From assembly GCF_000027125.1 (NCBI RefSeq), contig NC_017626.1: 64,000 nt of DNA. One strand, written 5' to 3'. Positions 22,591-40,929 of the stretch are shown here, piece after piece. The number at the start of each line of letters is the position of its first letter. The first letter of the stretch is position 1. The notes beneath the pieces were generated by a model. The model made no database searches. It was given only the letters and a program-made list of their open reading frames with translations, and was not told the DNA's origin. Made by a program: the position numbers and the translations under genes. Origin of the DNA: Escherichia coli 042. Lineage in GTDB: Bacteria > Pseudomonadota > Gammaproteobacteria > Enterobacterales > Enterobacteriaceae.

Positions 22591-24093
22591 TTACCTTTTT
22601 CTCCCCCCCAGCAAACTCCCCAACATTCCACGCACAATCTGATTCGTCACCTGGCGGGCGGCGCTTTTCGCCATTGTTTGCACAACACCATCTTTCTTCC
22701 CGCCGCGTGGTCCGGTAGTGCCGAACAAAATATCCTTCAATCCACCAAGAATGCCGTCATCTACCGCTACCTCTTTCCCTTTCGCGGGGGGATTATTTTG
22801 CTGCTCGGTGCTTGCCTGTACGCCTTTTTGCAACATCTCATAGGCGGATTCCCGGTCCACGTCATCCTCGTACTTGCCATACACCGGAGAGTGATTAATC
22901 AAGCCATTACGCTCATCTTCCGTCACCGGTCCCATCCGCGAACAAGGCGCAATCACCATCGCCCGTTCCACCACAGAAGGACTTCCTTTTGCATCGAGAA
23001 ACGAGATTAACGCCTCGCCGGTCCCCAGTTCCTGGATTGCCTTTTCCGTATCAAATGCAGGGGTGGGGCGCATGGTTTGCGCCGCAGCTTTTACCGCTTT
23101 CTGATCTTTGGGCGTAAAAGCACGCAAAGCGTGTTGAACGCGATTACCGAGCTGGCCGAGCACATTATCTGGAATATCAGACGGGTTTTGCGAAACGAAC
23201 CAGACGCCCACGCCTTTTGAGCGAATAAGCCTTATCACCTGCTCAATCTTATCCAGCAGTACCTGCGGGGCATCGTTAAATAGCAGATGTGCCTCGTCGA
23301 AGAAAAACACCAGTTTTGGTTTCTCCAGATCGCCCGCTTCCGGCAATTGTGCATACAACTCTGAAAGCATCCACAGCAGGCTGGCGGCGTACAGTTTCGG
23401 CATCTGATAAAGCTTCTCGGCGCTGAGGATATTGATAACGCCTTTACCGTTGGCATCGGTGCGCATCCAGTCTTTGATATCCAGCATCGGCTCACCAAAG
23501 AAGTGTGCTGCGCCTTGCTGTTCCAGCGACAACAGCCCGCGCTGGATGGCACCAACCGATGCGCTACTGATATTTCCGTACTGATTCTGGAAGGATTTGG
23601 CGTTATCGCCGATGTACTGGGTAATTGCCCGCAGATCTTTAAAGTCGAGCAGTAACAGCCCCTGATCGTCAGCAATGCGGAAAATGATATCCAGCACGCC
23701 AGATTGCACATCGTTGAGATTCAACAGTCGCGCCAGCAACAGCGGTCCCAGATCCGAAACCGTCGCCCGCACCGGATGGCCTTTCTCGCCAAAGATATCC
23801 CACACCACCACCGGATTGGCATGCGGTTGCCAATCATTGACGCCGATATTTTTAAGCCTTGCGAGCAGTTTTTCCGACGCCGTTCCTGCCTGCGCGATAC
23901 CGGTCAGATCGCCTTTCACATCAGCCATAAACACCGGCACGCCGATTTCCGACAATGACTCTGCCAGTTTTTGCAGCGTAACGGTTTTACCCGTCCCCGT
24001 TGCGCCGGTAATCAGCCCGTGACGGTTCGCCATTCCCGGCAGTAAAAACAGTTCTGTGTCCGGCGTGCGGGCAATTAACAGGGGTTCGCTCAT
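22591..24093 (-). CDS. yjgR: P-loop ATPase, DUF853 (HerA/FtsK-like)
   Basis: Internal Met of track ORF 22591..24141 gives [18 protein letters not shown]... Walker A motif GATGTGKT is present. Confidence 0.9.
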
Positions 24094-24222
24094 GAGATTT
24101 CCTCCAGTTTCCTGCCTGGAGTATAGGCAACGGCTGCGCACTCTTCACCGCTAAATTCAGCAGATTGCGAGACGCCTTCCAAAGAGATTTAAGTGCCGGG
24201 CGACAGGCACCCGGCAAAGAGA

Positions 24223-25437: not shown

Positions 25438-25522
25438 GCCGAAGTGGCGAAATCGGTAGACGCAGTTGATTCAAAATCAACCGTAGAAATACGTGCCGGT
25501 TCGAGTCCGGCCTTCGGCACCA
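25438..25522 (+). tRNA. leuX: tRNA-Leu (anticodon CAA)
   Basis: GCCGAAGTGGCGAAATCGGTAGACGCAGTTGATTCAAAATCAACCGTAGAAATACGTGCCGGTTCGAGTCCGGCCTTCGGCACCA. It has a long variable arm, CAA at 25472-25474 and an encoded CCA end. Confidence 0.95.
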
Positions 25523-25721: not shown

Positions 25722-26975
25722 ATGGCTCTGACAGATATCAAAGTGCGTTCTGCAAAACCACAGGAAAAGGAGTATACCCTTGCCGATGGAGATGGCATGT
25801 TTTTGCTCATTCACCCTAACGGCTCAAAATACTGGCGGTTTCGCTTTCGCTTTGGTGGTAAGCAGCACCTGATGGCATTTGGGGTTTATCCTGAAACGTC
25901 ACTGGCTGATGCTCGTCAAAAAAGGGAAGAGGCCAGAAAACTTGTTGCTGCAGGCATCGATCCCCGTGAACACAAACGTGCAGTGAAAGAAGAGCAGACG
26001 AAAGAGGCTATTACCTTTGAGTCAGTTGCCAGAGAGTGGCACGCAGTAAATAAAAAATGGACAGAAGAACATAGCCGACGGGTGCTGAAGAGCCTGGAAG
26101 ATAATTTGTTCCCAGCAATTGGGAAGCGGAGTATTGATAGTTTTAGTACGCGCGATCTCCTTGTCCCTATCAAAGTAGTTGAGGCTACAGGGCGTCTTGA
26201 AGTGGCTTCGCGTCTTCAGCAGCGTACCAATGCGATTATGCGTTGTGCAGTGCAAAGCGGTTTGATCGATTACAATCCTGCTCAGGAGATGGCTGGGGCA
26301 GTTGCTTCAAGTAATCGTGTCCATCGACCAGCACTTGAACTGAAACGCTTACCTGAACTACTCCAGCGAATTGATAGCTACTCCGGACGACCTTTAACCC
26401 GTCTGGCTGTTGAGCTCACGTTATTAATCTTTATTCGTTCCAGTGAGTTGCGCTTTGCCCGTTGGCCAGAGATCGATTTTGAAAGGGCAATGTGGACAAT
26501 CCCGGCAGAACGAGAAGCTATTGAAGGAGTGAAGCATTCGGAACGTGGCTCGAAAATGCGTACTCCTCATTTAGTGCCGCTTTCTCGTCAGGCACTGGCA
26601 ATCCTTAAACAGGTTCATAAGCTTAGTGGCGAGCGCGATTTTGTTTTCGTTGGAGATCACAATCCTTGTAAACCGATGAGTGAAAATACAGTGAACAAGG
26701 CGCTGCGCGTGATGGGATATGACACTAAGATTGAGGTTTGCGGTCATGGCTTCAGGACCATGGCATGTAGCTCGTTGATTGAATCAGGGCTGTGGTCTAG
26801 GAACGCTGTTGAAAGGCAGATGAGCCATATGGAGCGTAACTCTGTACGTGCTGCTTACATTCATAAGGCTCAACACTTGGATGAGCGTAAAATGATGCTG
26901 CAGTGGTGGGCAGATTTTCTTGATGTAAATCGGGTGAAGGGCGTCAGCCCATTTGATTTTGCCAAGGAGAAATGA
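25722..26975 (+). CDS. P4-type tyrosine integrase (IntB/IntS family)
   Basis: 417-aa ORF 200 nt downstream of leuX. N-terminus MALTDIKVRSAKPQEKEYTLADGDGMFLLIHPNGSKYWRFRF is the DUF4102 arm-binding type. The C-terminal HGFR...Y catalytic region is present. Confidence 0.92.
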   Translation: MALTDIKVRSAKPQEKEYTLADGDGMFLLIHPNGSKYWRFRFRFGGKQHLMAFGVYPETSLADARQKREEARKLVAAGIDPREHKRAVKEEQTKEAITFESVAREWHAVNKKWTEEHSRRVLKSLEDNLFPAIGKRSIDSFSTRDLLVPIKVVEATGRLEVASRLQQRTNAIMRCAVQSGLIDYNPAQEMAGAVASSNRVHRPALELKRLPELLQRIDSYSGRPLTRLAVELTLLIFIRSSELRFARWPEIDFERAMWTIPAEREAIEGVKHSERGSKMRTPHLVPLSRQALAILKQVHKLSGERDFVFVGDHNPCKPMSENTVNKALRVMGYDTKIEVCGHGFRTMACSSLIESGLWSRNAVERQMSHMERNSVRAAYIHKAQHLDERKMMLQWWADFLDVNRVKGVSPFDFAKEK

Positions 26976-27243
26976 GCTATGGTAATGAGGTTATAGATAA
27001 GAGAGAATACTACTTTATCGCGGGTTTTTAGTGGCTGGCAGGTCTAGATGAGTAGAAAATTCAAGTAATCTACACTCACTCGACTTAAAGATGGGGCCTT
27101 TTAAAAGGTCCTGCTTTGATGCTTACTGGAATGATAACCGTCCTAATCGTTGGCGAGTTTGTTCCATAAGTCCTGAATCCATAGGTTTTCTCTCTCATTG
27201 ATATTAAGTAGCACCCATAAATTTTATTCAAGGATAAGAGATA

Positions 27244-29628
27244 ATGGCAAATTTTTCGGTAGCTGCGAGAACATTAATTCATTTAGGGGCGGAACTGATT
27301 ACCTCAGATGAAGTTGCTATAAATGAACTTGTTAAGAATGCTTTTGATGCCGAATCTAAACGGGTTAGGATAAATGTATTCATACCTATTTCGCATTCGT
27401 TAATAGATGACTGCCTTGCAATACTCGACAATAGTAAAAAAGAGGAAGCTCTTCAAGATGATATTTTTCATATAAAGAAAATGTTAATTGAAAGTGTTTC
27501 TGAACCTTCTATTGCAGCCCAAGTAGAAGAGTTGTTGCTAAACTTAACTTCAGATTCTAGCAAGGATGAAGCAAAAAAAATAGTCGAGTCGATAAACTAT
27601 ATAACAATCGAAGATTCTGGTTGTGGAATGGATTTAGCGACACTTGAAACGGTATTTTTGGCAATAGGCACTCCCTCTAAAGTAAACTCTGAAAGTACAA
27701 AAGACTTAAATAGAAAAATCCTAGGCAATAAAGGTATTGGACGTTTAGCAATGATGAGACTTGGGGATATTGCCAACGTTACATCTTGGGTTGAACAAGG
27801 TAGTGCCCATGAAATTGAATTCGACTGGCGAATGTTTGACGATCCTGAAAAAATAATCACCGATATTGAATTTGAAATAAAACCGACCACTTGTCCAAGG
27901 CCAACACCTTCAGGGACTGTAATAAAGATAACAGCACTTAAAAGCTCTTGGACTGAAGAAAAAGTTCGCGAAAAGCTCGTGGGTGATTTTTTTAGAAGGT
28001 TACAAAACCCATTTGTGATGTCATTGGATGAAGGTAGCTCCGATAACACAAAAAAAAATAAAAAGAATAGAACTGTAGGCTTTCCAATAGATGTTCATAT
28101 TAATGGAGGAACTCGAATACCTATCGAAGGTATGAAGAAAGTGTTAACAGATTTAGTTCAGGCTGATATGGAGCTCTGGTTTGACCCAAACGGGATTGGT
28201 GATACACCTGAAGTTATTCTCCGTACGAGTTTGACTGACTACCAACGTGGAAATGAACCTGAAAATACTAATAGAACAATAGAAGAAGTAACACATGTTT
28301 TAAATGTTAATTTTGAAGCACTTAAGAAAATTGGCCCCGTAAGAGCTACTATTAGATGGTTTAATAGAGAACGGTTACGCCAGCAAGCTACTTTGCATGG
28401 TAACTGGAAAGCAGCGAAGGCCGAATTAGATTTATGGTGTGGAGGAATAGCAATATATCGAGATGGTTTTCGCATTGGATTTTCTGGACAATCAACCGGC
28501 GAAGACTGGCTGGGACTAGATAGTTCTGCTCTTAAGAGAGGAGGTTTTGCTGTAAACCGTATTCAGACTGTCGGTGCGTTAGAGATTTCAAGAAAAGAAA
28601 ATCCCGGTTTGGTTGATAGATCTAATAGAGAAGGATTGATTGAATCACCAGAATCCAATCTTGTAAGAGATATGCTGTCGAAATTTGCTATTGATGAACT
28701 TCGTCGCTACATCGGTCATGAAGGGCAAGAAGAGAAGAAAGCACGTCTAAATGATATAGTTGAAAGCGCTCCTGCAACTATACGCGCTCGGATACTGCAA
28801 GCTGAGCAAGGACTCACATCTATAAGGTCTAAGGTTCCCGCAGATGTTCAAGAATCAGTACAATCAATCGCAAATAATTTACACTTTATAAAAAATGAAG
28901 TAACTCGTTTTGAAGAGGCTAGCAAACTAGCAACAGAGAGACGTGAGGATATTCTTGAACTTGCTGGTGTTGGAACCGTAATGTCTGGTGTACTACATGA
29001 GCTCACTAGGACAACAGGCCACACTCGACAGCTGTTACAAAAGTTATCTAAAGATGAGTCTCCTGGTACTAAAGCTTTATTAACGAAGCTAGATTCGGAA
29101 ATTAAAGCGATCAATACGCGACTTCGACAGTTAGATCCTTTAACACCTTCTGGAAGGCATCGCAAAGAAATATTTAATTTGTCAGCATTGCTGAATACTA
29201 TATTAGAAGGGTATGGAGCTCGCTTTGAACGGCATAATATAATTCCAGAATTCAAAATCTCTGGAGTTGATGATACTCAACCTGTCGAAGTAAATATGGT
29301 ACGTGGTTTTGTTAGCCTTGCAATTGAGAATTTAATTACAAACTCGGTTTATTGGGTTCAGCAGGGGGGGAGAAGTGATCGTCGTATTACTTTAGAACTA
29401 GATGCAGAATCTAGGACATTAACTTTGCGTGATAATGGGCCAGGTATTTCTCCTGCAGATAAAGACAGAATTTTCACTGCAGGATTTACAATGCGACCTA
29501 AAGGGCAGGGTTTGGGTCTTTTCATTGCAGCTGAAGTGGCTACCTATCATGATGCGAGGCTTTTGTTGGACTCTGCTGATGAGGATGGCCGATATAGAGG
29601 TTTTGTCTTGGAGCTTCCAAAGGAATGA
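27244..29628 (+). CDS. Cytoplasmic dual-GHKL protein: N-terminal MORC/Hsp90-like ATPase plus C-terminal histidine-kinase-like module
   Basis: 794-aa ORF. N-terminal Bergerat motifs are E28-LVKN32-AFDA, D124-SGCG128 and G161-NKGIGRLA. The C-terminus has an H-box-like SGVLH585ELTRTTG, an N-box ENLITN700SVYW, G1 D730-NGPGI and G2 GQGLGL. I see no obvious TM segment. Confidence 0.6.
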   Translation: MANFSVAARTLIHLGAELITSDEVAINELVKNAFDAESKRVRINVFIPISHSLIDDCLAILDNSKKEEALQDDIFHIKKMLIESVSEPSIAAQVEELLLNLTSDSSKDEAKKIVESINYITIEDSGCGMDLATLETVFLAIGTPSKVNSESTKDLNRKILGNKGIGRLAMMRLGDIANVTSWVEQGSAHEIEFDWRMFDDPEKIITDIEFEIKPTTCPRPTPSGTVIKITALKSSWTEEKVREKLVGDFFRRLQNPFVMSLDEGSSDNTKKNKKNRTVGFPIDVHINGGTRIPIEGMKKVLTDLVQADMELWFDPNGIGDTPEVILRTSLTDYQRGNEPENTNRTIEEVTHVLNVNFEALKKIGPVRATIRWFNRERLRQQATLHGNWKAAKAELDLWCGGIAIYRDGFRIGFSGQSTGEDWLGLDSSALKRGGFAVNRIQTVGALEISRKENPGLVDRSNREGLIESPESNLVRDMLSKFAIDELRRYIGHEGQEEKKARLNDIVESAPATIRARILQAEQGLTSIRSKVPADVQESVQSIANNLHFIKNEVTRFEEASKLATERREDILELAGVGTVMSGVLHELTRTTGHTRQLLQKLSKDESPGTKALLTKLDSEIKAINTRLRQLDPLTPSGRHRKEIFNLSALLNTILEGYGARFERHNIIPEFKISGVDDTQPVEVNMVRGFVSLAIENLITNSVYWVQQGGRSDRRITLELDAESRTLTLRDNGPGISPADKDRIFTAGFTMRPKGQGLGLFIAAEVATYHDARLLLDSADEDGRYRGFVLELPKE

Positions 29629-31475
29629 TTATGGATATTCAAAAGTCATTTACTGAATCAAAAATTTTAAAAGTAGCGATCGTTGACGACGATTTGTCCG
29701 ATTTAATTACTATGGACGATCTGAATACTATAGACAAGGATATTGCCAGTTTGCTTGGTGATCCATCCGATCCTGATTGTGAAAGTTACCATGAACTACT
29801 AGCATCTGAAGGCTATGATCTTGACGAAATAGAAGATCTTGCTCAACCTCTTTCAAATAAATCAATTAGAGAAAAAGCTCCTGAGCGTCTAAAAAATGCG
29901 GCAAATAAAATTATCGAATTTCGTTATGATAACGCCAAGCCAATTAGACGTGTTAAACAATTACTACTGGAAGCTGGCATTTTAGAGGATAATATTCATT
30001 ATTATTTTAGCCCTGAAATACCTAATGAAGAGTTTTATGATCTTTTAGTGATAGATTACTTCTTGGTAAAAAATTCCTCCAAGCATACTTTACCTTTTAT
30101 CAAAAAAATACTCTCAACTCATGAAAAGGCACCAAAGCCTTTACAAGTTATTCTGATGTCGACTTATGAGGCAGAGTTAAAAGCAGAATTCAGGAATATT
30201 CGTCCCGAGATAAGAACTTCAAGCTCAAGAATGAGAATCATGAGCAAACCAATGTCTGATGATGATTTAGTATACTGGCGCTCTGCTTTGTTCCAGTTAT
30301 CTTCAGATCGACAATTTGTCGATGCAGTAGAAAAATTTGTTACTGAAACAATAAGTGGTTTTCAACATGCTGCACAAGAACAAGCTAAAAGATTATGGGA
30401 GCTTGATCTTCAGGCAATGGATATTCTCCATGAAGCTGCAACATCTGATAATGATGATTTTTGCCGCTATGTTGAAGAATGTCTAAGTAGACAATTATTA
30501 ACGGCTCTAGAAGAATGCTCTGGTATAAGAAAATCATTAGGTGTTTTAGGTGAATCATTAATAAAACATAGAGCTAACAACGTAATTGCGCCTGTTACTG
30601 AAATTGGTGATTCGAGGGCGGCAATTAGAACACTAATGAGGAGTATGGAATGGCGTGGGGGAAATACCCCTAGCATGACAGAGTTTAAAGACCCTAAAGA
30701 CAGAGCAAAGTGGATTCAGAAAAATCTGAGATTTGGAATGGTACTAAAATCACCAGATGATAAAAGATGGCTTAATTTAACTCAAGCGTGTGATCTTGCA
30801 CAAACAAAAGAGGATAATTTAAATTCGGTATCTCTCTTGCTTATTAGTGGTTCCTATGCTCGGCCAGTTGGACGTGAGAATGGGCAATCATTAGTGTATT
30901 TGAACACATCATTATCTGATGCAGGTAGTGAGGTTTTGTGTTGGGATGTACGTAATGTTCAAACGCCCTCAATATTTGATTTTGCTCAAACGTTTTATAA
31001 TGGCTGGTCAATTACTGGAGAGCTTCGTCTAGACCAGGCTCAAAGTATAGCTGCTTTATATAGTTCTCGAACTTTAAGGGTTGGTCTTCAAAAAAGGCTA
31101 AGTAGCTGGTGTCTTGATGGTAAAGCTTTATTCATAAACAAATTAAATAACAGCGCTCCAAGTGATAAAATCGAGGGTACGACTATTTCTGGTCATGCGA
31201 TGAATCGTGGTAAACCCGACGAAGTACATATCGATAAAGATAGCATGATAAAGCTTCAAAGAGATTTTCCTAATAGTATTAATAAAATATCTCTGAAATT
31301 ATATATGGGAATGCAGCTAAAGCCTGGTTCAAAAAACCAAGAAGAAGGTATTTTGATTTATTGTGCTGAAAAGCCGGAGAATATAGAATCACTTCGTAGG
31401 GCTATTAATGATAATGATTTTTTAAATCGTGATGTTAATCAAAATAAAGTGGTAATAGCTCTATGGCATAAGTGA
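29625..31475 (+). CDS. Divergent receiver(REC)-like N-terminus fused to an unknown ~400-aa C-terminal domain
   Basis: 616-aa ORF. Its ATG overlaps the upstream stop (ATGA), and an alternative ATG at 29631 has better AAGGA spacing. REC-like landmarks are LKVAIVD21D22D23, YDLLVID144YFL, LQVILMS179T180 and IMSK208P. I recognise no output-domain motif. Confidence 0.5.
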   Translation: MIMDIQKSFTESKILKVAIVDDDLSDLITMDDLNTIDKDIASLLGDPSDPDCESYHELLASEGYDLDEIEDLAQPLSNKSIREKAPERLKNAANKIIEFRYDNAKPIRRVKQLLLEAGILEDNIHYYFSPEIPNEEFYDLLVIDYFLVKNSSKHTLPFIKKILSTHEKAPKPLQVILMSTYEAELKAEFRNIRPEIRTSSSRMRIMSKPMSDDDLVYWRSALFQLSSDRQFVDAVEKFVTETISGFQHAAQEQAKRLWELDLQAMDILHEAATSDNDDFCRYVEECLSRQLLTALEECSGIRKSLGVLGESLIKHRANNVIAPVTEIGDSRAAIRTLMRSMEWRGGNTPSMTEFKDPKDRAKWIQKNLRFGMVLKSPDDKRWLNLTQACDLAQTKEDNLNSVSLLLISGSYARPVGRENGQSLVYLNTSLSDAGSEVLCWDVRNVQTPSIFDFAQTFYNGWSITGELRLDQAQSIAALYSSRTLRVGLQKRLSSWCLDGKALFINKLNNSAPSDKIEGTTISGHAMNRGKPDEVHIDKDSMIKLQRDFPNSINKISLKLYMGMQLKPGSKNQEEGILIYCAEKPENIESLRRAINDNDFLNRDVNQNKVVIALWHK

Positions 31476-31513
31476 TTTGATTTATTGCTAATTTATCAGG
31501 TGTATTATTTTCT

Positions 31514-31550
31514 CAATGTGAGCTAATTATTTCTTTATTAGCTCACATTG
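31514..31550. terminator. Perfect 14-bp-stem hairpin between the two convergent operons
   Basis: CAATGTGAGCTAAT (31514-31527), a 9-nt loop, then ATTAGCTCACATTG (31537-31550), with AT-rich flanks on both sides. Confidence 0.6.
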
Positions 31551-31623
31551 ATATCCATTTATGTTAAATGATAAGGGGAAATTGTACTATAAAATATAGA
31601 CCAGATTAATTTACCCCTTCTTT

Positions 31624-32463
31624 TTATTTATGGCAAATTGCGCATGAGCCTCCGCCTTCATCTTCCCCATAAATTTCATCAATATCAATGAGAGTCTCAC
31701 CAGGGCGTAGTGGGTTAATGATTTTTTTCGCTTTGAGTCTGGCTTGCCGCTTTTCAAAATCAGTGACAATTTGAGCAATTCTTTCAGGCTCCTCAAGTGA
31801 CTCTAGTGATTCACCTTTAGTCCAAGTAAAGGGAGAACCATGTTCAATTGCATTTTTTTCATATCGTTTAGCTTCTTCAAATGCCTCTGGGTGACGCTCT
31901 TTTAATCTTACCCACTCAATCTTTTGTTGGAAGAAGCAAAAAGTACAGCCGCTACGTGATCGCCATTCATAATATTTTGGAAGACCAACTCCTGATGAGT
32001 CAAGAATATCCATAACACCTTTCCGATCTATTCCGGCATCTCTAAATGGTAAACTAATAGTTAAATTTGCATTTTTCGAACTATATCCTTCACGGTAATC
32101 TTCGTCTGCTCTTATTGCTACATAGCTTGTAACTTTATCACCAGCATTAAGCATCGGACGAACCCACTGTTCGAAGGGCGCGAGTTTTAACTGACGAGTA
32201 CACCAACGAGTCTGCGGCGAGGGTAGAAAATGATTATATTCACGTAACCAGAAATCAAAACCACGTCTAGGGTTTAGTCTGGCAATTGGTTTGCCTAAAA
32301 ATCCTTCTAATCGCCCCAAAAACTCATAGACTTCAGGTAATTCTTTACCTGTATCAGTAAAGAAATAGTCGATATCTAACTCGGGGCGTGTCTGGCGCAT
32401 GAAAACAGCAAGTGCAGCACTGTCTTTACCCCCAGAAATACCAAGTACATGCTTTTCAGTCAT
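31624..32463 (-). CDS. sspD: PP-loop ATP pyrophosphatase, PAPS-reductase-like (SspD/DndC-like)
   Basis: Track ORF 31624..32481. The Met at 32463 has a GAGG Shine-Dalgarno and gives MTEKHVLGISGGKDSAALAVFM (SGGKDS PP-loop). C-terminal cysteines are CTFCFF and CAICHK. Confidence 0.7.
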   Translation of the reverse strand: MTEKHVLGISGGKDSAALAVFMRQTRPELDIDYFFTDTGKELPEVYEFLGRLEGFLGKPIARLNPRRGFDFWLREYNHFLPSPQTRWCTRQLKLAPFEQWVRPMLNAGDKVTSYVAIRADEDYREGYSSKNANLTISLPFRDAGIDRKGVMDILDSSGVGLPKYYEWRSRSGCTFCFFQQKIEWVRLKERHPEAFEEAKRYEKNAIEHGSPFTWTKGESLESLEEPERIAQIVTDFEKRQARLKAKKIINPLRPGETLIDIDEIYGEDEGGGSCAICHK

Positions 32464-35400
32464 TCTTAACCTCAACATCATGCTGAGCGATTTTAATACA
32501 AGCTTTACCTAATGCAGCCATTATAATATCTGGGTTTAATCCTTTTCCAGATAATGTTCTAATTAACTCACCGGCGAGGTTGTCAATCTGATGGTTGAAT
32601 TGCTCAGGTATACTGAATTCGTGTTTGAATGTTTTCATTTCTGAACCAGCTCCAATAACCACTGCAAATGCCTCGCTTGATGGTTTTCGTCCTTGGATCG
32701 ATACTAATGCTTCGGATTGGCGAAACCGCAGTGCAAAATTGGCTATTTCCATAAGTGCTAAATCAATATCTCGATCATTCCAGTCTCTTGGAGGCTTGTT
32801 TGCAGCTAGGCTGAGTATACCTTCTATAGAATAATGACTACCATCGTACGTAGCTAAACGTGTTGAAAAGGCATCTTGCCGAAGTTCGCCAGTGATACCG
32901 GATAACGTTTCAGCACGTTTTCGTAGTGTAGATAAGTCATCTTTATTAGCATTCAGAGCTTTTAGCATTCTTGATGCAAATTGGTCTAAGAGTTTGTCAT
33001 AGGCACTCCAAAGTTCTTTTACTGGAGCCTGTAATGCATCAACATAATTTTTCCCACTTTCTACATTTAGAGCCGCGGCTAAATCAATAAATAAAACTTT
33101 ATGAGGATCGCTAGCTTTTAATAGTGTATCTCGTACCTTCTTCGCATTAGATGAAAGTCTCGCCGTCCTTTGTGTCCAATTTGGGAGTCCAACAATCATG
33201 GCAACTAGACTTCTGGCAGCTTCTAACGGTTCAGCTGAATTAGACATGAGACCAATAGAATCAAGAAGTTTACCAATTCCTACTAGAATCTTTTGTTTTT
33301 CATCATCAATTACAATCCACCGCAAGGAAAAACGTTTTTCATCCTGCAAGTATTCATCAATATCTGCATCAGTAAAAGTAGGAATAAATAATCCATCTTT
33401 ATAAATAGCAATATTACTTTTAGATGCCAGAAGGAAGGCCATAAATATTATCGGTATAACACCTTTTTTTAAACCAAATGGAGGTTTAGCCCAAAGGGTA
33501 TGAATATCAGATACTGATATCATTTGATTTTTATTTTTAATGAAATCATGCGTTTTCTTCCAAAGACCATAAAACGACGAATGCTTGTCGCTGACCGCAG
33601 GAAGAAAATGATAATACCCATCATGATGCTTCGCATACAAGCCGGTACGATGGAGAATCGTTTCATATAGGCCGCGTGAGGCAGGATATCCCTCAATTCC
33701 AAGATGGAGTTCACCCTCATTTTCTAGCATTCGATATAACAATTCTTTCCTGGCTTTTACGCTATTGCTGGATAAATTATCACGATTAACTAATTCACTC
33801 CATAACCTTGGAGCTTTGTAGTAAATATTATCTGCAAGAGAGGATGCAATTGATGATAAAGTACCTTTAGGTTCCGCCTGAGCAGAATCTATACACCATT
33901 CCGCAGTCGCTAATGCCTCTGCTAACTGTTCTTCTAATGTTGATTGCGTTGCACTTATCCTTGCTTGGACTTCTCTTCGTGCAACAGCATCACCTTGTAA
34001 TTCATGTCCACGTTTAGTTTGGACTATTTGAAGTGCTAGGAGTTCGGCACCTAAATCTTCTATGCGCAGGTAGTTATGTGGAATCCCGGCAACAATGGGC
34101 CATGGCTTTGAACGAGAAGCATCAGCACAAATTATTTTAGCTTGTTCTTCATTTACATTTCTTTCAGGAAGTGCCAGAAGAAATAATCCAAACTCTCCGT
34201 TACGTGGCTGGAACTCTTCTGAATATTTTTTTACCTCGTTAAGGTGACAAAGTGCAATATTCATCCAGCGAAAAGTACCAGTTTGATGGTAATGCCTTTT
34301 TGCAATTACAGGATAAAGATTAGCAATTTTATTCAGTTGACTAAAATCTGTTCCAAGCATGGTTGCACGTGATTGTGCAACGGCTTGGTCAATATTAAAA
34401 TCACTTCCTTCAAAAACAGACCATGCCCCGGTATGTTTTTTGAATATGATAACACGCCATTTAGAAAGATCTTCGAGTGCGGATCTAATATTTTCAATAG
34501 AAGTATTCAAGAATAATGATTCTAGTATGCTTGTTTCAGCGGTCAATCCTGAACCATCTTTGAAAAGGTCAAGTATTGCAATACATTTAATTAAATCAAT
34601 ATGCAATATATTATCAGATTTTGCCTCCGCACGTTCTACAGCGTCTACCGCTTGTGCCCAACGATGTCCATCATTAGAGGCCAAAATTAATTGTTCAAGA
34701 TTTGCTCTTAAGTAATCGAAATAGTTTGAGGGAAGATACCAAGTAGCCTCTTCAAATGTGGTTAGATTGAGATAGTTTTGAAACCCGAAAGGTTCAGAGG
34801 ACGAGAGAAAACCAAAAGTTGAACGCTCGTTCTGTCCAAACTGACGTTTTGATATAGGTCCTAATAAAGCAGCCATTACCGGGTGTAAAGGCCAACACTT
34901 GGATAATGCATAATCATATTGCTTTCCAACCATTGGGCGTCGATCATAAATAGCATCCGCGACTACTTGCGCTACTTTTTGAGTGTATTTGGGTCTTTTT
35001 TTAACATCTAACGCTTTACCTATAAGTTCAACAACTTCATCACTCCCTGCAACTAAGGGAATATCAGCATAACGGCCTTGGATTTTAGTCCACTCTTCAC
35101 GAGTTTCAAGTCCAAGTCGAACAGCATATTGTCCAAAAGATTGATGTAATATACCTAAGATAATGACTTTACCATTTGTACGTGCTGCAGATTCAGCAAG
35201 CTCTTGGTAAAAATAAATATCATCGCCATTTCCTAAAGCTGATGCTTCAAGGAACTTACCTAGCTCGTCAATGATAAGCAAGGTACCATCTAACTTCGCT
35301 TCATCTGCAGCACTGCATATGTGTTTAATAAGTAATGATGCTGATTTTTTATAATCTTTATCACTACCACAAACATTATTCAGAGTTTGCGAAATTTGTT

Positions 35401-35788
35401 GGATTATGCTACCTCTGCGGCCAATAACTGGAAGTATTAACCATCCTTTTTTAACTTGGAATGCTTTATCAAAATCACTTTGTGAATCGACATTTAACAA
35501 TGACCTTGCTTTTTCACGTAGAGCTTTGTTAGGTGATAATGAACTTGCAAGAACTAACGCTAATGATGATTTCCCACTTCCATACGGACCAGTCCATGTG
35601 AAAGCTCGCTGTTGGCTATTCAGAACCTGCTTGGACATGTTTTCAAGAACGCTTTGTGCCGTGCCATTGCATACATATCCATCAAGCGCATCTTCGCGGC
35701 CAAGATCAGCATCAATACGGATGGAACGTTGGTATTGTCTCGCAATGCGAACCTGTTCTGAAAGAAGGTTTTTATTATGTTTAGTCAT
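32456..35788 (-). CDS. sspC: Large P-loop ATPase (DUF499/BrxC-like; SspC-like)
   Basis: Track ORF 32456..35800 starts at a TTG; the ATG is at 35788. Walker A is GPYGSGKSS and Walker B is LLIIDELGK. The ~1110-aa size fits DUF499-type ATPases. Confidence 0.65.
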   Translation of the reverse strand: MTKHNKNLLSEQVRIARQYQRSIRIDADLGREDALDGYVCNGTAQSVLENMSKQVLNSQQRAFTWTGPYGSGKSSLALVLASSLSPNKALREKARSLLNVDSQSDFDKAFQVKKGWLILPVIGRRGSIIQQISQTLNNVCGSDKDYKKSASLLIKHICSAADEAKLDGTLLIIDELGKFLEASALGNGDDIYFYQELAESAARTNGKVIILGILHQSFGQYAVRLGLETREEWTKIQGRYADIPLVAGSDEVVELIGKALDVKKRPKYTQKVAQVVADAIYDRRPMVGKQYDYALSKCWPLHPVMAALLGPISKRQFGQNERSTFGFLSSSEPFGFQNYLNLTTFEEATWYLPSNYFDYLRANLEQLILASNDGHRWAQAVDAVERAEAKSDNILHIDLIKCIAILDLFKDGSGLTAETSILESLFLNTSIENIRSALEDLSKWRVIIFKKHTGAWSVFEGSDFNIDQAVAQSRATMLGTDFSQLNKIANLYPVIAKRHYHQTGTFRWMNIALCHLNEVKKYSEEFQPRNGEFGLFLLALPERNVNEEQAKIICADASRSKPWPIVAGIPHNYLRIEDLGAELLALQIVQTKRGHELQGDAVARREVQARISATQSTLEEQLAEALATAEWCIDSAQAEPKGTLSSIASSLADNIYYKAPRLWSELVNRDNLSSNSVKARKELLYRMLENEGELHLGIEGYPASRGLYETILHRTGLYAKHHDGYYHFLPAVSDKHSSFYGLWKKTHDFIKNKNQMISVSDIHTLWAKPPFGLKKGVIPIIFMAFLLASKSNIAIYKDGLFIPTFTDADIDEYLQDEKRFSLRWIVIDDEKQKILVGIGKLLDSIGLMSNSAEPLEAARSLVAMIVGLPNWTQRTARLSSNAKKVRDTLLKASDPHKVLFIDLAAALNVESGKNYVDALQAPVKELWSAYDKLLDQFASRMLKALNANKDDLSTLRKRAETLSGITGELRQDAFSTRLATYDGSHYSIEGILSLAANKPPRDWNDRDIDLALMEIANFALRFRQSEALVSIQGRKPSSEAFAVVIGAGSEMKTFKHEFSIPEQFNHQIDNLAGELIRTLSGKGLNPDIIMAALGKACIKIAQHDVEVKND

Positions 35789-36671
35789 AAGCCTTTCCAA
35801 GCATGTTCAATTTAATTACTTCTGTTTCTGATGTTTTACGATGAACCTGGCGTAAACCAGCTGTATCAGTCCATATAAATGAACCTTCAGTTAACTCTTC
35901 TAATGCGAATAATCGTTCTGCAATAGAGTCTTCATCGAGCTTAAATACTCTACCCGGAGAACCGTCCCCATATGCAATTGTTTCGAAGGATAATGAGCTG
36001 AGATTTAGGGCCTTACGCTCCCAATAATCGATCAGAGCATAAGCAAATACACCATCAGACAAAGTAATCTTTGGACCTCGACGAAATGAAAAGTGTCCTT
36101 TTTTTTCTTCAGCTAGTAAACCTAATTCACCAAGCATAGGTTCGGCAAAGTCTTCAGGAGTGGTTCCACTCGACCGCGGTGCATAACTACGCAAACATGT
36201 CTCAATATCTCGAGAAAGTGTCATTGGTGATAGTTTTCTCCCAGGACAACATTGCGTAGCATAGTCAGCTAAAAGAGCCCGGAGGTCTTCTTGTGTAAAA
36301 GATGAAGAAACAACATGGTTAAATAACCAGTACCAAGTTGTCGAGCGTTCTCCTTTTCCTGAAAGCTTCCAATGGCTAAGCCATGCTGTCGAGGGATGCT
36401 CTGAATAAGGATCAAGCCCATGTTCGCTAAATATTTTAATAGCAAATTCTGTAAGTTTGAATTTACCATCCTCTTCTCGCATTACTTCACAGGCGAGTGC
36501 CCAATGCTTGATTGATGCGACCATGTTTTTGCCTACACCAAATTTGGCAATGGCCTCATCATTCGAAAAAACCGATTTGTCAATAGAACCATCCGGCGCT
36601 GCATAACTGCAGGTTTTTTTTAACCACATTTGTCTTAGTGGGAAGGTCTCGTGACCTGAAAAGTGAGCCAT
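35781..36671 (-). CDS. sspB: DUF4007-family protein (SspB-like)
   Basis: 296-aa ORF. The N-terminus MAHFSGHETFPLRQMWLKK matches my recollection of the DUF4007 signature. It is the first gene of the three-gene overlapping operon. Confidence 0.65.
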   Translation of the reverse strand: MAHFSGHETFPLRQMWLKKTCSYAAPDGSIDKSVFSNDEAIAKFGVGKNMVASIKHWALACEVMREEDGKFKLTEFAIKIFSEHGLDPYSEHPSTAWLSHWKLSGKGERSTTWYWLFNHVVSSSFTQEDLRALLADYATQCCPGRKLSPMTLSRDIETCLRSYAPRSSGTTPEDFAEPMLGELGLLAEEKKGHFSFRRGPKITLSDGVFAYALIDYWERKALNLSSLSFETIAYGDGSPGRVFKLDEDSIAERLFALEELTEGSFIWTDTAGLRQVHRKTSETEVIKLNMLGKAYD

Positions 36672-37502
36672 GACTTATCCTAATGCGATAACAACTTTGT
36701 ATAAGCTGATTGTACAGGAACTGGAGAGTTTCACCAGTGGCGGCTTTTGGACATCATTGGGGTGGCGTAGCGGTTTTTTTTTTATTTTTTTCGTTAAAAT
36801 ACATATTGTTAATTGTTTTTTATTGCGGAGGGGAACTGTCTATATCTTCTCATGCATCGGGATTTTTAACAGGCCTGAGCTGGCATGTTCTACCGTTTCA
36901 CACAGAAAGGAACAGTTAGTTTCAAACGGATACTTATCAATCAGTGGTGTGAGAAATGCTAAGAGTGGGAAACGCACTTAATTTTATGATTTCTTAGTGA
37001 CCAGTTTTTAACCATGAGCTAATCTTAAAATCTGATTTTTATCAATGAGTTAATGTTGATGTACTATGCGGCAATGAATGAAGTGTATTGCCATTCCGAA
37101 TTTTTGCTCATTTTTTAGCCATTTCCATACTTTTTTGCGTGAATATTTTATGAACAATGTTCCTTTCATAACTTATCTGTCTCAAATGATACGTTTGGAG
37201 TTTACAATTACTAAATATTTAATGTAAGTGGGAACAGCTATTTTTTGTTCATATTAGCTCCCAGCAGCAAAAGATGATGTAATTCATCCGGTGCAGAGAT
37301 AATATAGGAATGGATAATCTGGAGAGCGACTCTGCAGGCTGATATTGCGGTTTTGCGGCAAGTTTTTGGCATCCGCTTCTACGCCAAATACCTGAAGTAG
37401 GAATGGATGCGTTAGCAGCATACATCCGGATCTGCGCGGGGAATAGCCGGAAACGGCTATCCCTACCACAATAGCTAACTTTGTAATAGTGCCCTTTTAG
37501 GC

Positions 37503-38534
37503 TCATGTACTCTGACGTAATTCTATCTGGTAGTTGAATTGCACGATACGCGACTCTTCTGATTCATCATGATTATTATTCAATAGCCCAATCAGTAACT
37601 TACCCGTCTCTATCCCCATTTTTTTGTAGTCAATACGGATGGATGTCAAGGTTGGGTGTGTTTGATCGCAATTGTCTGAACCATCAAGACAAGCTACAGC
37701 GATATTTTCAGGAATTTTTAACAAACGCCGCTGGCACTCAAACATGATACCCAGCGCAATCTCTTCGTGGCTGCAAATCACAGCATCCAGCTCTGGTTGT
37801 CGCAGTAATATCTCGTTTAATGCGTAACGCCCCAATTGCAGACTTGCGGCATCCGGCATGGTGATAACAAGATCAGAGTTCTGGTAATGGCTCAACATTG
37901 CTTTATGCCAGCCGTTCAGTTGCTGACGTTGCAGGCGGTTGTCCATATGCGCACCGATAAATCCGATATTCTTATAACCCTGTTCCAGCAGATGTTCGGT
38001 CAGTTTATGTGATGCTTCAAAAAATGCTGTTTCGATGGTAATTTGAGCCGGACTGAAAGGGGAACCGACAACGTTAATGGTAGGTATATTTGTTTTCTCG
38101 AGTATCTGGTGAGTTTTATCAGCCAACTGAGAACCAAAAATAACTAACGCCGCCGGGTTGCCTTGAAGAAGCGTCATCAGAATTTCAGCTTCTTTGAGCT
38201 GATTATACTCATGACACCCAAGCAGTAGCTGGAATTCATTTTTATTAAGCACCTGCTGCAACGACTGCATAAAGCGGGAGCTGGCTTTATCTGTCAGGGA
38301 AGGAACCAGTACGGCGACTGTATCACTGTGACCAGATGCAAGGGCGCCAGCAGTTCTGTTGGGAATATAACCCAACTCTTCTACGGCCTGTTCTATCTTT
38401 TCCCTCAGCTTGTCAGATACCTGTTCCGGTGTTCTCAGCGCACGGGAAACGGTCATGGTTCCGACACCTGCAAAGTTAGCGACCTCCTGCAGCGTCACCC
38501 GTCCGGTACCACGGCGCTTACGTGTTTTTTCCAT
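37503..38534 (-). CDS. LacI-family regulator (GntR/IdnR-like)
   Basis: 343-aa ORF with the HTH VTLQEVANFAGVGTMTVSRALRTPEQVS and a periplasmic-binding-protein-like core. Confidence 0.85.
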   Translation of the reverse strand: MEKTRKRRGTGRVTLQEVANFAGVGTMTVSRALRTPEQVSDKLREKIEQAVEELGYIPNRTAGALASGHSDTVAVLVPSLTDKASSRFMQSLQQVLNKNEFQLLLGCHEYNQLKEAEILMTLLQGNPAALVIFGSQLADKTHQILEKTNIPTINVVGSPFSPAQITIETAFFEASHKLTEHLLEQGYKNIGFIGAHMDNRLQRQQLNGWHKAMLSHYQNSDLVITMPDAASLQLGRYALNEILLRQPELDAVICSHEEIALGIMFECQRRLLKIPENIAVACLDGSDNCDQTHPTLTSIRIDYKKMGIETGKLLIGLLNNNHDESEESRIVQFNYQIELRQST

Positions 38535-38679
38535 TTCGACTCCATGGATAATTACAACCAGCTGTTTTCATTACTTTTATTTCACCATTACTCTTTCCAG
38601 TTTTTGCCCACGGTAGCAAATATCCTGTTGCATTGTATATGCAGGAACCGAATATAGCCAAAGCATGGCGGCAGAGAAA

Positions 38680-38727
38680 TGATAGCGCTATCACAAAGAT
38701 TGGTAGCGTTATCAGATAGCGCTATCA
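38680..38727. promoter_or_regulatory. Three LacI-type palindromic operators
   Basis: TGATAGCGCTATCA (38680-38693, perfect), TGGTAGCGTTATCA (38701-38714) and AGATAGCGCTATCA (38714-38727), in the divergent regulator/PTS intergenic region. Confidence 0.7.
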
Positions 38728-38804
38728 AATGCGACAATCATCACATTAATTAATGCGTAAAATATCTACTCTCCTGTTAATTATCATCGGGAGTTATCAG
38801 TAGC

Positions 38805-39248
38805 ATGTTAAAAAATCTATTAAATACAGAGGTCGTTCAGGTCGTGGAACAGGCCAAAGACTGGCGGGAAGCCGTGGCGATTTCATGCCGGCCGTTGATT
38901 GAAAACGGTTCTATCGAACCGCGTTATGTTGATGCGATCTATCGCTCGCACGACACTATCGGTCCGTACTATGTGGTTGGCCCTGGTATTGCGATGCCTC
39001 ATGCGCGCCCGGAAGAGGGAGCTAACAAGCTGTCATTAGCACTGACCCTGATCCCTTCAGGTGTGAATTTTGATGCCGATGAAAACGATCCAGTGAAATT
39101 ACTGATTGTGCTGGCTGCAACCGACAGTACCAGCCACATTGAAGCGATTTCTCAACTCGCCAAGTTATTCGATAACGAAAAAGACATACAGGCCATTTTG
39201 ATGGCCAAAACGACGCAGGACATTTTGTCTGTTATTGCGCGCTATTAA
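38805..39248 (+). CDS. PTS EIIA component (EIIA-2, UlaC-like)
   Basis: 147-aa ORF with the GIAMPHARPEEG phosphorylatable-His motif. Confidence 0.85.
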   Translation: MLKNLLNTEVVQVVEQAKDWREAVAISCRPLIENGSIEPRYVDAIYRSHDTIGPYYVVGPGIAMPHARPEEGANKLSLALTLIPSGVNFDADENDPVKLLIVLAATDSTSHIEAISQLAKLFDNEKDIQAILMAKTTQDILSVIARY

Positions 39249-39263
39249 TCCAGAGGAACATTT

Positions 39264-39551
39264 ATGAAAATTACAGTGGTTTGCGGTAACGGCTTAGGCA
39301 CCAGCCTGATGATGGAAATGAGCATTAAAAGCATTTTGAAGGATTTGTCCGTCAGCGCTGATGTTGATCACGTCGACCTGGGCTCCGCGAAAGGGACGCC
39401 GAGTGATATCTATGTCGGCACCAAAGACATTGCCGAGCAGTTAGTCGCGCAGTCTGTCGCAGGCAAAATCGTCGCACTGGAAAATATGATTGATAAGAAA
39501 GCCATGAGAGAACGTTTATCCGTGGTATTAAACGAATTAGGCGCACTGTAA
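39264..39551 (+). CDS. PTS EIIB component (UlaB/SgaB-like)
   Basis: 95-aa ORF MKITVVCGNGLGTSLMM with the active-site Cys near the N-terminus. Confidence 0.85.
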   Translation: MKITVVCGNGLGTSLMMEMSIKSILKDLSVSADVDHVDLGSAKGTPSDIYVGTKDIAEQLVAQSVAGKIVALENMIDKKAMRERLSVVLNELGAL

Positions 39552-39563
39552 GCTGGGGGCGAT

Positions 39564-40820
39564 ATGGATTTCTTTCGTTTTTTGATGAGCGATGTACTTT
39601 CCGAACCCGCAGTGCTGGTCGGTTTAATCGCCCTGATTGGCCTGATTGCACAGAAAAAACCGGTAACCGAATGCATTAAAGGTACCGTCAAGACCATTAT
39701 GGGGTTTGTGATTTTAGGCGCAGGGGCGGGTTTAGTTGTGTCGTCACTGGGTGACTTCGCAAACATTTTCCAGCATGCCTTTGGTATTCAGGGTGTAGTG
39801 CCGAACAATGAAGCCATTGTTTCCGTAGCGCAGAAAAGCTTCGGGAAAGAAATGGCGATGATTATGTTCTTTGCGATGGTTATCAACATTATGATTGCCC
39901 GTTTCACACCGTGGAAATTTATCTTCCTGACCGGTCATCACACGTTGTTTATGTCGATGATGGTAGCGGTAATTCTGTCAACAGCAGGCATGACCGGCAT
40001 TACGCTTATAGCCGTTGGCTCTTTGGTTGTTGGCGTGGCAATGGTCTTTTTCCCGGCTATTGCGCATCCGTACATGAAGAAAGTGACCGGTTCTGATGAC
40101 GTTGCCATCGGCCACTTCTCAACATTATCTTATGTATTGGCTGGTTTCATCGGCAGCAAGTTTGGTAATAAAGAGCACTCGACTGAAGACATGAATGTGC
40201 CGAAAAGTCTGCTGTTCTTGCGCGACACGCCGGTTGCTATCTCTTTTACCATGAGCATAATTTTCCTGGTGACGTGCCTGTTTGCGGGTGCAGATGCGGT
40301 GAAAGAGCTTAGCGGTGGTAAAAACTGGTTCATGTTCTCTATCATGCAATCCATTACCTTCGCAGCTGGCGTGTACATCATTCTGCAGGGTGTGCGCATG
40401 GTGATTGCGGAGATTGTCCCGGCATTCAAAGGTATTTCAGACAAGCTGGTTCCGAATGCCAGACCTGCTCTCGATTGCCCGGTCGTCTTCCCTTACGCAC
40501 CTAACGCTGTACTGGTTGGTTTCCTGAGTAGCTTTGCTGCAGGTTTAATCGGTATGTTCACGTTGTATCTGCTGAACATGATCGTGATTATTCCTGGTGT
40601 GGTGCCGCACTTCTTCGTAGGTGCAGCTGCAGGGGTATTCGGTAATGCAACGGGTGGACGTCGTGGTGCGATTTTGGGTGCCTTCGCTCAAGGCTTGCTT
40701 ATTACCTTCCTGCCAGTATTCTTATTGCCGGTGCTGGGTGATATTGGTTTTGCTAACACCACCTTCAGTGATGCTGACTTTGGCGCACTGGGTATTTTGT
40801 TAGGGATTATCGTTCGCTAA
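39564..40820 (+). CDS. PTS EIIC component (UlaA/SgaT L-ascorbate family)
   Basis: 418-aa polytopic ORF. IKGTVKTIMGFVILGAGAG and ILQGVRMVIAEIVPAFKGISDKLVPNARPALDC resemble UlaA as I remember it. Confidence 0.85.
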   Translation: MDFFRFLMSDVLSEPAVLVGLIALIGLIAQKKPVTECIKGTVKTIMGFVILGAGAGLVVSSLGDFANIFQHAFGIQGVVPNNEAIVSVAQKSFGKEMAMIMFFAMVINIMIARFTPWKFIFLTGHHTLFMSMMVAVILSTAGMTGITLIAVGSLVVGVAMVFFPAIAHPYMKKVTGSDDVAIGHFSTLSYVLAGFIGSKFGNKEHSTEDMNVPKSLLFLRDTPVAISFTMSIIFLVTCLFAGADAVKELSGGKNWFMFSIMQSITFAAGVYIILQGVRMVIAEIVPAFKGISDKLVPNARPALDCPVVFPYAPNAVLVGFLSSFAAGLIGMFTLYLLNMIVIIPGVVPHFFVGAAAGVFGNATGGRRGAILGAFAQGLLITFLPVFLLPVLGDIGFANTTFSDADFGALGILLGIIVR

Positions 40821-40833
40821 TATTTTGATGACA

Positions 40834-40873: not shown

Positions 40874-40929
40874 TTCCTCTTATTTTCTCCATTTTTCTTT
40901 CTTCCAGTCAGGACTGCATCCGATTAATC

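Follow-up and report, generated by a model that had tools for sequence, protein, structure and literature searches.

A kinase/receiver gene pair beside the Ssp phosphorothioation genes of Escherichia coli 042: a probable signalling-type partner module

Which proteins act together with a DNA phosphorothioate (PT) modification module when its known restriction partners are missing? This question is raised by a locus of Escherichia coli 042 that lies in a stretch of 64,000 nucleotides of contig NC_017626.1 (the window). The locus consists of two tightly packed convergent operons at 27244-36671, separated by 148 bp. The minus strand carries sspD, sspC and sspB, and the plus strand carries the genes for a histidine kinase-like (HK-like) and a response regulator-like (RR-like) protein. 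The original prediction, made from the DNA letters, had taken this pair for an undescribed PT-dependent sensing or effector module standing instead of a known effector, or for an independent two-component defence system of the Detocs type that happens to share the islet.

SspABCD together with SspE was reportedly described as a phosphorothioate defence system by Xiong in 2020. Among 2678 sspBCD loci, sspE was found beside 7.4% and sspFGH beside 7.3% (Wang et al. 2021, PMC8092258). As this amounts to only about 15% of the modules, most have no known restriction partner, and how, or whether, such systems defend the cell is at issue. The conserved kinase/receiver pair is a concrete candidate for the missing arm; among the 25 sspBCD loci of complete E. 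coli genomes, 9 have it. Our analysis makes it very probable that the pair is a dedicated functional companion of Ssp systems. We also lean towards the view that all five genes form one system, in which the pair is a phosphorelay-coupled, DNA-sensing partner of Ssp and probably its effector arm.

The Ssp module and its linkage to the pair

The minus-strand operon was identified by full-length profile matches as sspB-sspC-sspD, the Ssp PT modification module, in agreement with the original prediction. SspB (35781-36671, minus strand, 296 aa) matches its PADLOC model over residues 3-280 (6.9e-115) and Pfam DUF4007 (4.8e-90), and carries FSGHETFPLRQMWLKK at residue 4. SspC (32456-35800, minus strand, 1114 aa) is a BrxC/DUF499-like P-loop ATPase that matches PADLOC SspC over aa 13-1050 with E=0; its Walker A motif GPYGSGKSS is at residue 71 and its Walker B motif LLIIDELGK at residue 174. 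SspD (31624-32481, minus strand, 285 aa) is a PP-loop, PAPS-reductase-like protein that matches PADLOC SspD over its full length (1.4e-140) and Pfam PAPS_reduct (1e-06), with SGGKDS at residue 16. The peptide motifs that had been quoted for the three proteins are all present. RefSeq also has these five genes and places some starts a little further downstream (RR-like 614 aa, SspD 279 aa, SspC 1110 aa).

No SspA, SspE, SspF, SspG or SspH was found in the window with hidden Markov models (HMMs) built from verified examples, the SspE model being derived from a genuine Salmonella SspE. The sole match to the SspF, SspG and SspH models was a weak one of the core gene yjgR (22591-24141) to SspH (E=3.8e-4); it reflects the shared HerA/FtsK ATPase domain (HerA-like helicase C-terminal domain) and lies outside the island. 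SspA is present in 24 of the 96 loci surveyed. In such E. coli, IscS supplies the sulfur and can replace SspA. Hence, an SspA in the locus is not obligatory.

On the plus strand, the open reading frame (ORF) at 27244-29628 encodes the HK-like protein of 794 aa, a paraMORC-histidine kinase fusion. It is followed by the ORF of the RR-like protein at 29625-31475 (plus strand, 616 aa; RefSeq start 29631, 614 aa), whose start overlaps the HK-like stop as ATGA, so that the two genes are translationally coupled. Neither protein has a PADLOC match to SspE or a DGQQR motif. Matches to SspFGH, DndFGH or PbeABCD, which are modules of three to four genes with an SspH or DndH of roughly 1750 aa, were likewise absent from the PADLOC results. 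The pair stands outside these families, as had been predicted.

The neighbourhood of the pair was surveyed across genomes and metagenomes. Contigs were traced from the homologues of the RR-like protein, of which 84 were found, and from those of the HK-like protein, 1421 of them at E<=1e-5. A scan of genome contigs with the single sequence returned one locus; a metagenome scan with an alignment of HK-like proteins was used instead, which added 80 loci with an HK identity of 27% to 100%. Loci were classified with iterative HMMs built from their own ORFs. Dereplication at 90% HK identity left 75 locus clusters, whose HK-like proteins have 28-100% identity to the query. One or more Ssp genes lie beside the pair in 68 of the 75 clusters, and the other 7 are on contigs that break off within some 3 kb of the pair on one or both sides. 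Some loci had been scored as Ssp-'negative' or 'distant' at first; they fell away as exceptions when PADLOC found full-length SspF, SspG, SspH or SspA beside the pair.

In named genomes, the pair stands beside sspBCD in every lineage with a long enough contig. These are Pseudomonas abyssi, P. fluorescens, Pectobacterium atrosepticum, P. carotovorum, Salmonella Livingstone, Stenotrophomonas, A. baumannii and a Betaproteobacterium, in which the genes lie inside a Tn7-like element. A metagenome lineage with an RR-like protein of only 30% identity has the same neighbours, and in Xanthomonas and Dokdonella the genes follow each other on one strand as sspB-C-D-A-HK-RR. Relative to the pair, the ssp genes are upstream on the same strand in 25 clusters, convergent in 20, divergent in 5 and downstream on the same strand in 3. 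In four loci with about 31-33% HK identity (L052, L055, L058 and L060), the pair even lies inside the modification operon, as sspB-sspC-HK-RR-sspD, with SspFGH sometimes following.

The divergence of the components was compared by Mantel tests. Within the modules, the correlation is high (HK-RR, r=0.96; SspC-SspB, 0.96; SspC-SspD, 0.90), and between HK and SspB, SspC or SspD it reaches r=0.52-0.62 (permutation p<=0.0005). Two modules that are inherited together, with some reassortment, would agree with this pattern. None of the other components evolves as fast as the RR-like protein, whose mean pairwise distance is 0.80, compared with 0.40-0.65 for the rest.

In two loci (L012 and L013; 1248-18306), the five-gene cassette is located beside TnsA/TnsB/TniB/TniQ-like genes and so seems to be carried by a Tn7-like transposon. 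P. atrosepticum (L002) has it at another chromosomal site, immediately behind a P4-type integrase. The cassette thus seems to move as a unit on different vehicles.

Within E. coli, sspD is detectable in 25 complete genomes, and three types of locus can be told apart. Nine of the 25 genomes carry the pair. Another 14 share an sspD of about 71% identity; of these, strain S10 (L107) was inspected and has three genes that resemble those for SspF, SspG and SspH in size and annotation. In the remaining two, the sspD identity is about 69%, and strain E2386 (L108, at tRNA-Sec), which was the one inspected, encodes a 785-aa DUF262 protein like SspE. The sspD genes of the three types have about 69-71% DNA identity, and in all three the partner cassette is convergent with sspD-sspC-sspB. 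By gene order, the pair is the occupant in E. coli of the slot that SspE or SspFGH holds in other strains.

The claim that the pair replaces a known effector holds for E. coli 042. As a general statement it fails, since SspFGH accompanies the pair in 27 of the 75 clusters and SspE in 2, both with Salmonella loci (L014, L045). Neither SspE nor SspFGH is present in many pair loci with 10 kb of sequence on both sides. In Salmonella Livingstone (L014/L015; 1147-13253), a full-length SspE (PADLOC E=0) and the pair stand to either side of one sspBCD operon; a single modification module seems to be shared there by two partner modules.

Family and domains of the pair

The pair belongs, by its profile matches and architecture, to a two-component system (TCS)-like family that has been described before and is functionally uncharacterised. 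Bellieny-Rabelo et al. 2021 defined HEF_HK (PF19191) and Response_reg_2 (PF19192) by bioinformatics, with the same architecture (PMC8011034). In their 644 regions the two genes were linked in 91.6%, type II restriction-modification (R-M) genes were enriched nearby, above all those for C5-methyltransferases and Vsr, and no transmembrane regions were predicted (PMC8011034). The authors suggested a paraMORC ATPase ancestry and a signalling role tied to R-M (PMC8011034). Phosphorothioation, Dnd, DUF4007, PAPS (PAPS reductase) and BREX are not mentioned in the text of that paper.

The E. coli proteins match both Pfam families below the gathering thresholds (19.6 vs 24.1 bits and 22 vs 27 bits). The HK-like protein has the HEF_HK arrangement of HATPase_c_3, a HEF_HK DHp with the core His, and HATPase_c, and it is adjacent to a soluble Response_reg_2 receiver in which the acidic pocket, the Thr/Ser and the Lys are retained. 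Profile searches thus place the pair in a known family, though in none of the known PT-effector families. The word 'undescribed' in the original prediction is right for the partnership with Ssp and wrong for the family, which has been defined since 2021.

What is new is the Ssp linkage, as the link reported in 2021 was to C5-methyltransferases and not to phosphorothioation. No methyltransferase is annotated in the E. coli block or within ~9 kb on each side; sspBCD stands in its place. Campylobacter plasmids carry the other form, with a 24%-identical HK-like protein, then a 340-aa receiver protein and a convergent dcm, in line with the R-M context reported in PMC8011034. The 10-kb stretch read there contains no annotated nuclease. 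On an Agrobacterium plasmid, HK-RR precedes three genes whose sizes and annotations correspond to SspF, SspG and SspH.

In the literature examined, we found no analysis of a partnership between the kinase/receiver pair and Ssp. Rakesh/Aravind/Krishnan 2024 deals with Dnd only and contains no kinase, MORC or receiver terms, in a 2026 BREX survey a kinase comes up only as part of Schlafen fusions, and the V. cholerae WASA paper concerns GHKL-Shedu. A relevant statement is in a 2025 pangenome paper on A. baumannii, where 5518 of 5530 Ssp loci are without sspE and one sentence notes a histidine-kinase two-component system near such loci (PMC12421847).

HK-like protein: Pfam finds HATPase_c_3 (aa 118-203), HATPase_c (aa 691-793) and a sub-threshold HEF_HK (aa 583-634). 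The first domain is part of a MORC/MutL-type GHKL ATPase and transducer module, which spans aa 1 to about 450 (27244-28593, plus strand) and comprises the Bergerat fold motifs I-III and an S5-like transducer, as in MORC and paraMORC proteins. A long coiled coil connects this module with the C-terminal DHp + CA kinase core (aa 570-794; 28951-29625, plus strand), which superposes on known histidine-kinase cores (ThkA 21.2, HK853 19.9, ZraS 19.1). The predicted phospho-accepting residue is His585 (codon 28996-28998). The middle region has no Pfam match even at E<=10, and no membrane or small-molecule sensor domains were reported in the domain searches. PADLOC gave only weak matches of the N-terminal GHKL domain, to REase_II (type II REase) and MzaB, and a PHROG search of the full-length protein returned generic GHKL and kinase families only. 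RefSeq names the protein 'sensor histidine kinase'.

The catalytic residues tested in both ATPase modules are strongly constrained among 74 distinct HK-like homologues down to 28% identity. The GHKL motifs E28/N32/D35, D124xGxG and G161xxGxG are invariant, and so are the H-box His585, the N-box N700, the G1-box D730xGxG, G756 and G758 of the kinase core. G754 is kept in 72 of the 74.

RR-like protein: The N-terminus (aa 1-210; 29625-30254, plus strand) is a CheY-type receiver (REC) domain that contains a helical insert, as identified from its conserved residues and a weak, sub-threshold Response_reg_2 match. D21, D144 and K208 are invariant in 65 of 65 sequences, D22 is found in 64 of 65, and position 179 is always Ser or Thr. 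D144 (codon 30054-30056) is the predicted phospho-acceptor. Together with the kinase motifs, these residues bear out the earlier assignment of the pair as a histidine-kinase-like ATPase and a receiver protein.

The AlphaFold model of the RR-like protein (pLDDT, the predicted local distance difference test, 84.5) contains three more segments. A helical bundle at aa 212-342 (30258-30650, plus strand), seen in the secondary structure of the model and without a family match at E<=10, leads to a conserved alpha/beta output domain at aa about 357-490 (30693-31094, plus strand), and this is followed in the model by a variable C-terminal alpha/beta extension at aa 493-616 (31101-31472, plus strand). 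G371, C389 and D390 are invariant in 65 of 65 sequences, the last two forming the Cys389-Asp390 dyad of the output domain. Among the 352 representatives of the long RR-like family (50% identity, E<=1e-3), the majority match profile positions 1 to about 500 only. No extra known domain was found in the longer family members.

RR-like proteins have about 620-740 aa in the Ssp-linked clade, whereas the dcm-linked Campylobacter form has about 340 aa. When the trimmed C-terminal domains of long and short RRs were compared with hhalign, they aligned over 117 columns (E=3.3e-4, probability 38%), pairing LNLTQACDL with IILTPSCDI and ELRxD...RVGL with PFLKD...ARQGSP; the comparison of whole-protein profiles was not significant (E 0.0054, probability 6.7%). 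There is moderate support from the trimmed domains for residues ~357-490 being an output domain common to the whole family. The short, methyltransferase-linked RRs keep the Cys-Asp dyad (codons 30789-30794) too, as C234-D235, without exception in their alignment.

Effector arm, regulator or neighbour

While the linkage is observed in the contigs themselves, the function of the pair is predicted from sequence. In the reading that we prefer, the MORC-like ATPase would dimerise on DNA and read its modification state, which would set autophosphorylation at His585. The phosphate would move from His585 to the receiver Asp144, and the phosphorylated receiver would switch the C-terminal output domain with Cys389-Asp390 against the invading nucleic acid or the infected cell. 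PT from SspBCD would be the self mark, and the pair would serve as a restriction or abortive arm of the phosphorelay type, in the role that SspE or SspFGH has elsewhere. Distant relatives of the pair would act likewise beside a C5-methyltransferase. In its complete form, the proposal is that self and non-self are discriminated by a backbone mark that is read via a His-Asp phosphorelay, and that a novel, possibly toxin-like Cys-Asp output stops the infection; this we put forward as tentative. The mark would then be phosphorothioate here and 5-methylcytosine in the distant dcm-linked clade.

The pair would be the third class of Ssp restriction partner if this were true, and the first R-M-type immunity with a two-component pathway as the R arm in place of a mark-reading nuclease. 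A TCS-like family that Pfam has listed without a function since 2021 would thereby acquire one, and bacterial MORC-type ATPases would be tied to signalling. At the level of gene content, Ssp systems probably have a third partner module, which is of the signalling type.

With the whole RR-like model, the top 10 Foldseek matches in the PDB are all MazF/MoxT structures (probability 0.99-1.0, target template modelling score 0.56-0.71, E 6e-3 to 0.17; sequence identity 6-10%). By our placement, this match would fall in the segment of aa about 357-490, which possibly adopts a MazF/Kid-like fold; we regard this as a lead and not as a result. The catalytic residues are Arg/Thr in MazF and Arg/Asp/His in Kid. 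The conserved Cys-Asp dyad, Arg468 and Arg485 of the RR-like protein differ from the MazF set, and the domain, unlike MazF, Kid or PemK, is embedded in a 616-aa receiver protein and has no sequence-level match. R468-x-D470 presumably resembles R73/D75 of Kid, although D470 is conserved in only 34 of 65 sequences. A MazF-type, RNase-like chemistry is improbable on this evidence.

Four observations argue for an effector role. In E. coli, the pair is convergent with the ssp genes in the position where other strains have SspE or SspFGH, the two known restriction modules. The RR-like protein evolves fastest, as is more typically seen with an effector that faces an antagonist. No nuclease is annotated beside the dcm-linked relatives in the stretch read, and a relative of the pair has a high defence score. 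The latter is an E. coli pair of a 989-aa ATP-binding protein and a Response_reg_2 protein, to which DefensePredictor assigned log-odds of 14.78 (PMC13092281). This value exceeds every other row in the part of Table S6 that we consulted (PMC13092281).

A number of points weigh against this role. The same relative pair, cloned alone under pBAD, was scored defensive=FALSE, and so was a second construct (2CM2, 2CMP; Table S6, PMC13092281). Such a result is expected if the modification partner is required, and equally if the pair is not an effector; under the effector reading, the likely reason why a top DefensePredictor candidate failed alone would be that its modification partner had been left out. 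No Pfam (E<=10), NCBIfam, PHROG or PDB sequence match was obtained for residues 212-616 of the RR-like protein, and the output domain contains no recognisable nuclease motif. The MazF-like signal is weak, with no Foldseek match at E<=0.001 and the residues covered not reported. Since SspFGH or SspE can be present together with the pair, the latter cannot be regarded as a mere replacement effector, and sspBCD is the only element common to all full-length loci, which would fit a regulatory role too. Shared host phylogeny may contribute to the Mantel correlations. The universal linkage holds for this clade and not for the whole HEF_HK family, because the metagenome motifs came from Ssp-linked sequences. 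For the Ssp-linked clade, the effector role is a prediction from sequence and genomic context.

Several of these points would suit a pair that regulates the modification module, i.e., the activity or expression of SspBCD or the PT density. The MORC-like sensor would then monitor the state of DNA or nucleotides, loosely like DndB or the C-proteins of R-M systems, and restriction would be left to SspE or SspFGH where present, or would be missing altogether (epigenetic role). With sspBCD as the sole partner common to the full-length loci, SspFGH or SspE coexisting in 29 of the 75 clusters, the pair placed between sspC and sspD in some operons, no nuclease signature in either protein and a related pair that alone is not defensive, such a role has a clear basis, and the authors of the 2021 study likewise proposed signalling that controls R-M (PMC8011034). 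It is harder to reconcile with the convergent slot in E. coli and with the fast evolution of the RR-like protein, in which profile searches detected no helix-turn-helix (HTH) or other DNA-binding output domain. Moreover, an apparatus of roughly 1400 aa with two ATPases is heavy for tuning a methyltransferase or SspBCD. We consider regulation of the module rather unlikely as the function of the pair. On the narrower question of whether the pair is an effector rather than a regulator, we hold the chances to be even.

The pair could also be a self-sufficient defence system that lies beside sspBCD only through the clustering of defence genes, as the Detocs-like alternative in the original prediction had it. 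Detocs (DtcABC) is a precedent for TCS-based defence, in which a kinase senses infection, an Hpt buffer protein takes part and a receiver carries a PNP-type effector. Both modules of the E. coli locus are in an integrase-borne islet, the logic of kinase to receiver-effector is shared with Detocs, and DefensePredictor rates relatives of the pair as defensive. However, mere clustering is at odds with a linkage that is found in 68 of 68 informative clusters, in many taxa and four arrangements and partly within one operon, and with a divergence that co-varies with that of SspB, SspC and SspD. The pair also differs from Detocs in having two genes, no Pfam Hpt or PNP domain, a MORC-like sensor and a dependence on DNA-modification genes. 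At E<=0.01, REase_II and MzaB were the only PADLOC matches, so that no Detocs model was matched, and no Hpt protein or PNP effector was found. As the relative was also inactive when cloned alone, we consider an independent Detocs-like system very unlikely, and the neighbourhoods strongly favour the other alternative, a PT-linked sensing or effector module. Still less credible is an ordinary housekeeping two-component system for nearby LacI/PTS metabolic genes. It would agree with the RefSeq name and with the sugar-utilisation genes at 37.5-46 kb, but the HK-like protein has a MORC/MutL ATPase at its N-terminus and no matches to membrane or small-molecule sensor domains, and the RR-like protein is without a DNA-binding output. 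In addition, the neighbours differ between taxa except for the ssp genes, and an IS110 fragment lies between the block and the sugar genes.

Compared with known systems, the preferred reading of a sensing partner and probable effector arm combines familiar parts in a different way. SspABCD-SspE and SspFGH loci (PMC8092258) have the same SspB, SspC and SspD module, the island context and the convergent partner layout. Their partner is a DUF262/DUF1524 nuclease or SspF/G/H, whereas here it is a MORC-like ATPase/histidine kinase with a receiver; the E. coli 042 locus also has no sspA, and the pair can coexist with SspE or SspFGH. The published HEF_HK/Response_reg_2 pairs are the same two-gene unit, with the same His and Asp residues and a link to DNA modification, but they lie beside C5-methyltransferases, Vsr and type I/II R-M, whereas this clade (at least 28% HK identity) is linked to Ssp. 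Prokaryotic MORC/paraMORC GHKL ATPases are found in R-M and defence contexts (Iyer, Abhiman & Aravind 2008, as cited in later papers; GHKL-Shedu VcSduA, PMC12137116). With these, the HK-like protein shares the N-terminal GHKL ATPase and transducer, the complete motif set and the DNA-modification or restriction neighbours. In place of a nuclease, its MORC module carries a fused histidine-kinase core, and its output would run via a separate receiver. The residues for a His-to-Asp transfer as in canonical two-component systems are present and invariant; unlike in canonical response regulators, residues 212-616 have no sequence match to a DNA-binding or other known output domain.

Setting of the block

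The AT-rich block with its two convergent operons follows the leuX integrase as described in the original prediction, whose direct statements all hold and whose G+C counts were exact (23 in the 60-nt line at 27241, 32 in the core line at 24241). The G+C content is 38.5% in the block (27000-37000) and 49.9% in window positions 1-25400. At >=99% identity, the block is present in 9 of 5426 complete genomes and is chromosomal each time. Hence, it is genuine E. coli DNA.

The island integration site is leuX, a tRNA-Leu(CAA) gene at 25438-25522 (plus strand), found by ARAGORN and annotated by RefSeq as tRNA-Leu. It is followed by the ORF of a P4-type tyrosine integrase of 417 aa at 25722-26975 (plus strand; RefSeq 'tyrosine-type recombinase/integrase'). 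In Pectobacterium, another 417-aa integrase with identical domain content lies upstream of the same five-gene cassette. A second copy of the leuX 3' end (attR) was not found anywhere in the window, which means that the attR of the island is missing or beyond the window. At the right edge of the Ssp block, there is an IS110 transposase fragment (37268-37375, minus strand), as annotated by RefSeq in the identical locus of strain 190693. Scans for promoter and terminator consensus sequences gave counts within shuffle expectation and were uninformative.

Further apparent island cargo of ~47% GC, unrelated to the Ssp block, extends over 37503-46100. It comprises genes for a LacI-family regulator, IIA/IIB/IIC components of the ascorbate family of the phosphotransferase system (PTS), a transposase fragment, an aldose 1-epimerase, a fucP-like permease and an rbsK-like kinase.

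In three E. coli assemblies, the HK-like gene is split together with sspB or sspC. We rejected a co-inactivation of both modules, as the frameshifts are all one-base deletions in homopolymer runs (7-9 nt), and in strain B1.H1.39 six of six coding-region substitutions are in or beside GATC. Such homopolymer indels and GATC substitutions are typical nanopore artefacts. Gene decay was therefore not used as evidence. All indel differences among the nine E. coli copies fall in five homopolymers, which are A8 at 27566-27573 and G7 at 29358-29364 in the HK-like gene, T8 at 36092-36099 and T8 at 36607-36614 in sspB, and an intergenic T9 at 36766-36774. Slippage-prone tracts in both modules could in principle lead to phase variation.

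Additional genes were seen in some of the surveyed loci. In Dokdonella (L008, 11894-13692), a gene of the DndB family (PF14072) directly follows the RR-like gene. In Stenotrophomonas (L016, 226-2455), a DUF262-only protein and a Ser/Thr kinase are encoded upstream of sspB. A 972-aa protein is encoded between the RR-like gene and sspD in L040 (14293-17211); it has no PADLOC match, and an HNH-like motif, a P-loop and TPR-like repeats can be recognised by eye. Finally, an OloA-like protein of 858 aa is encoded in L053 (642-3218).

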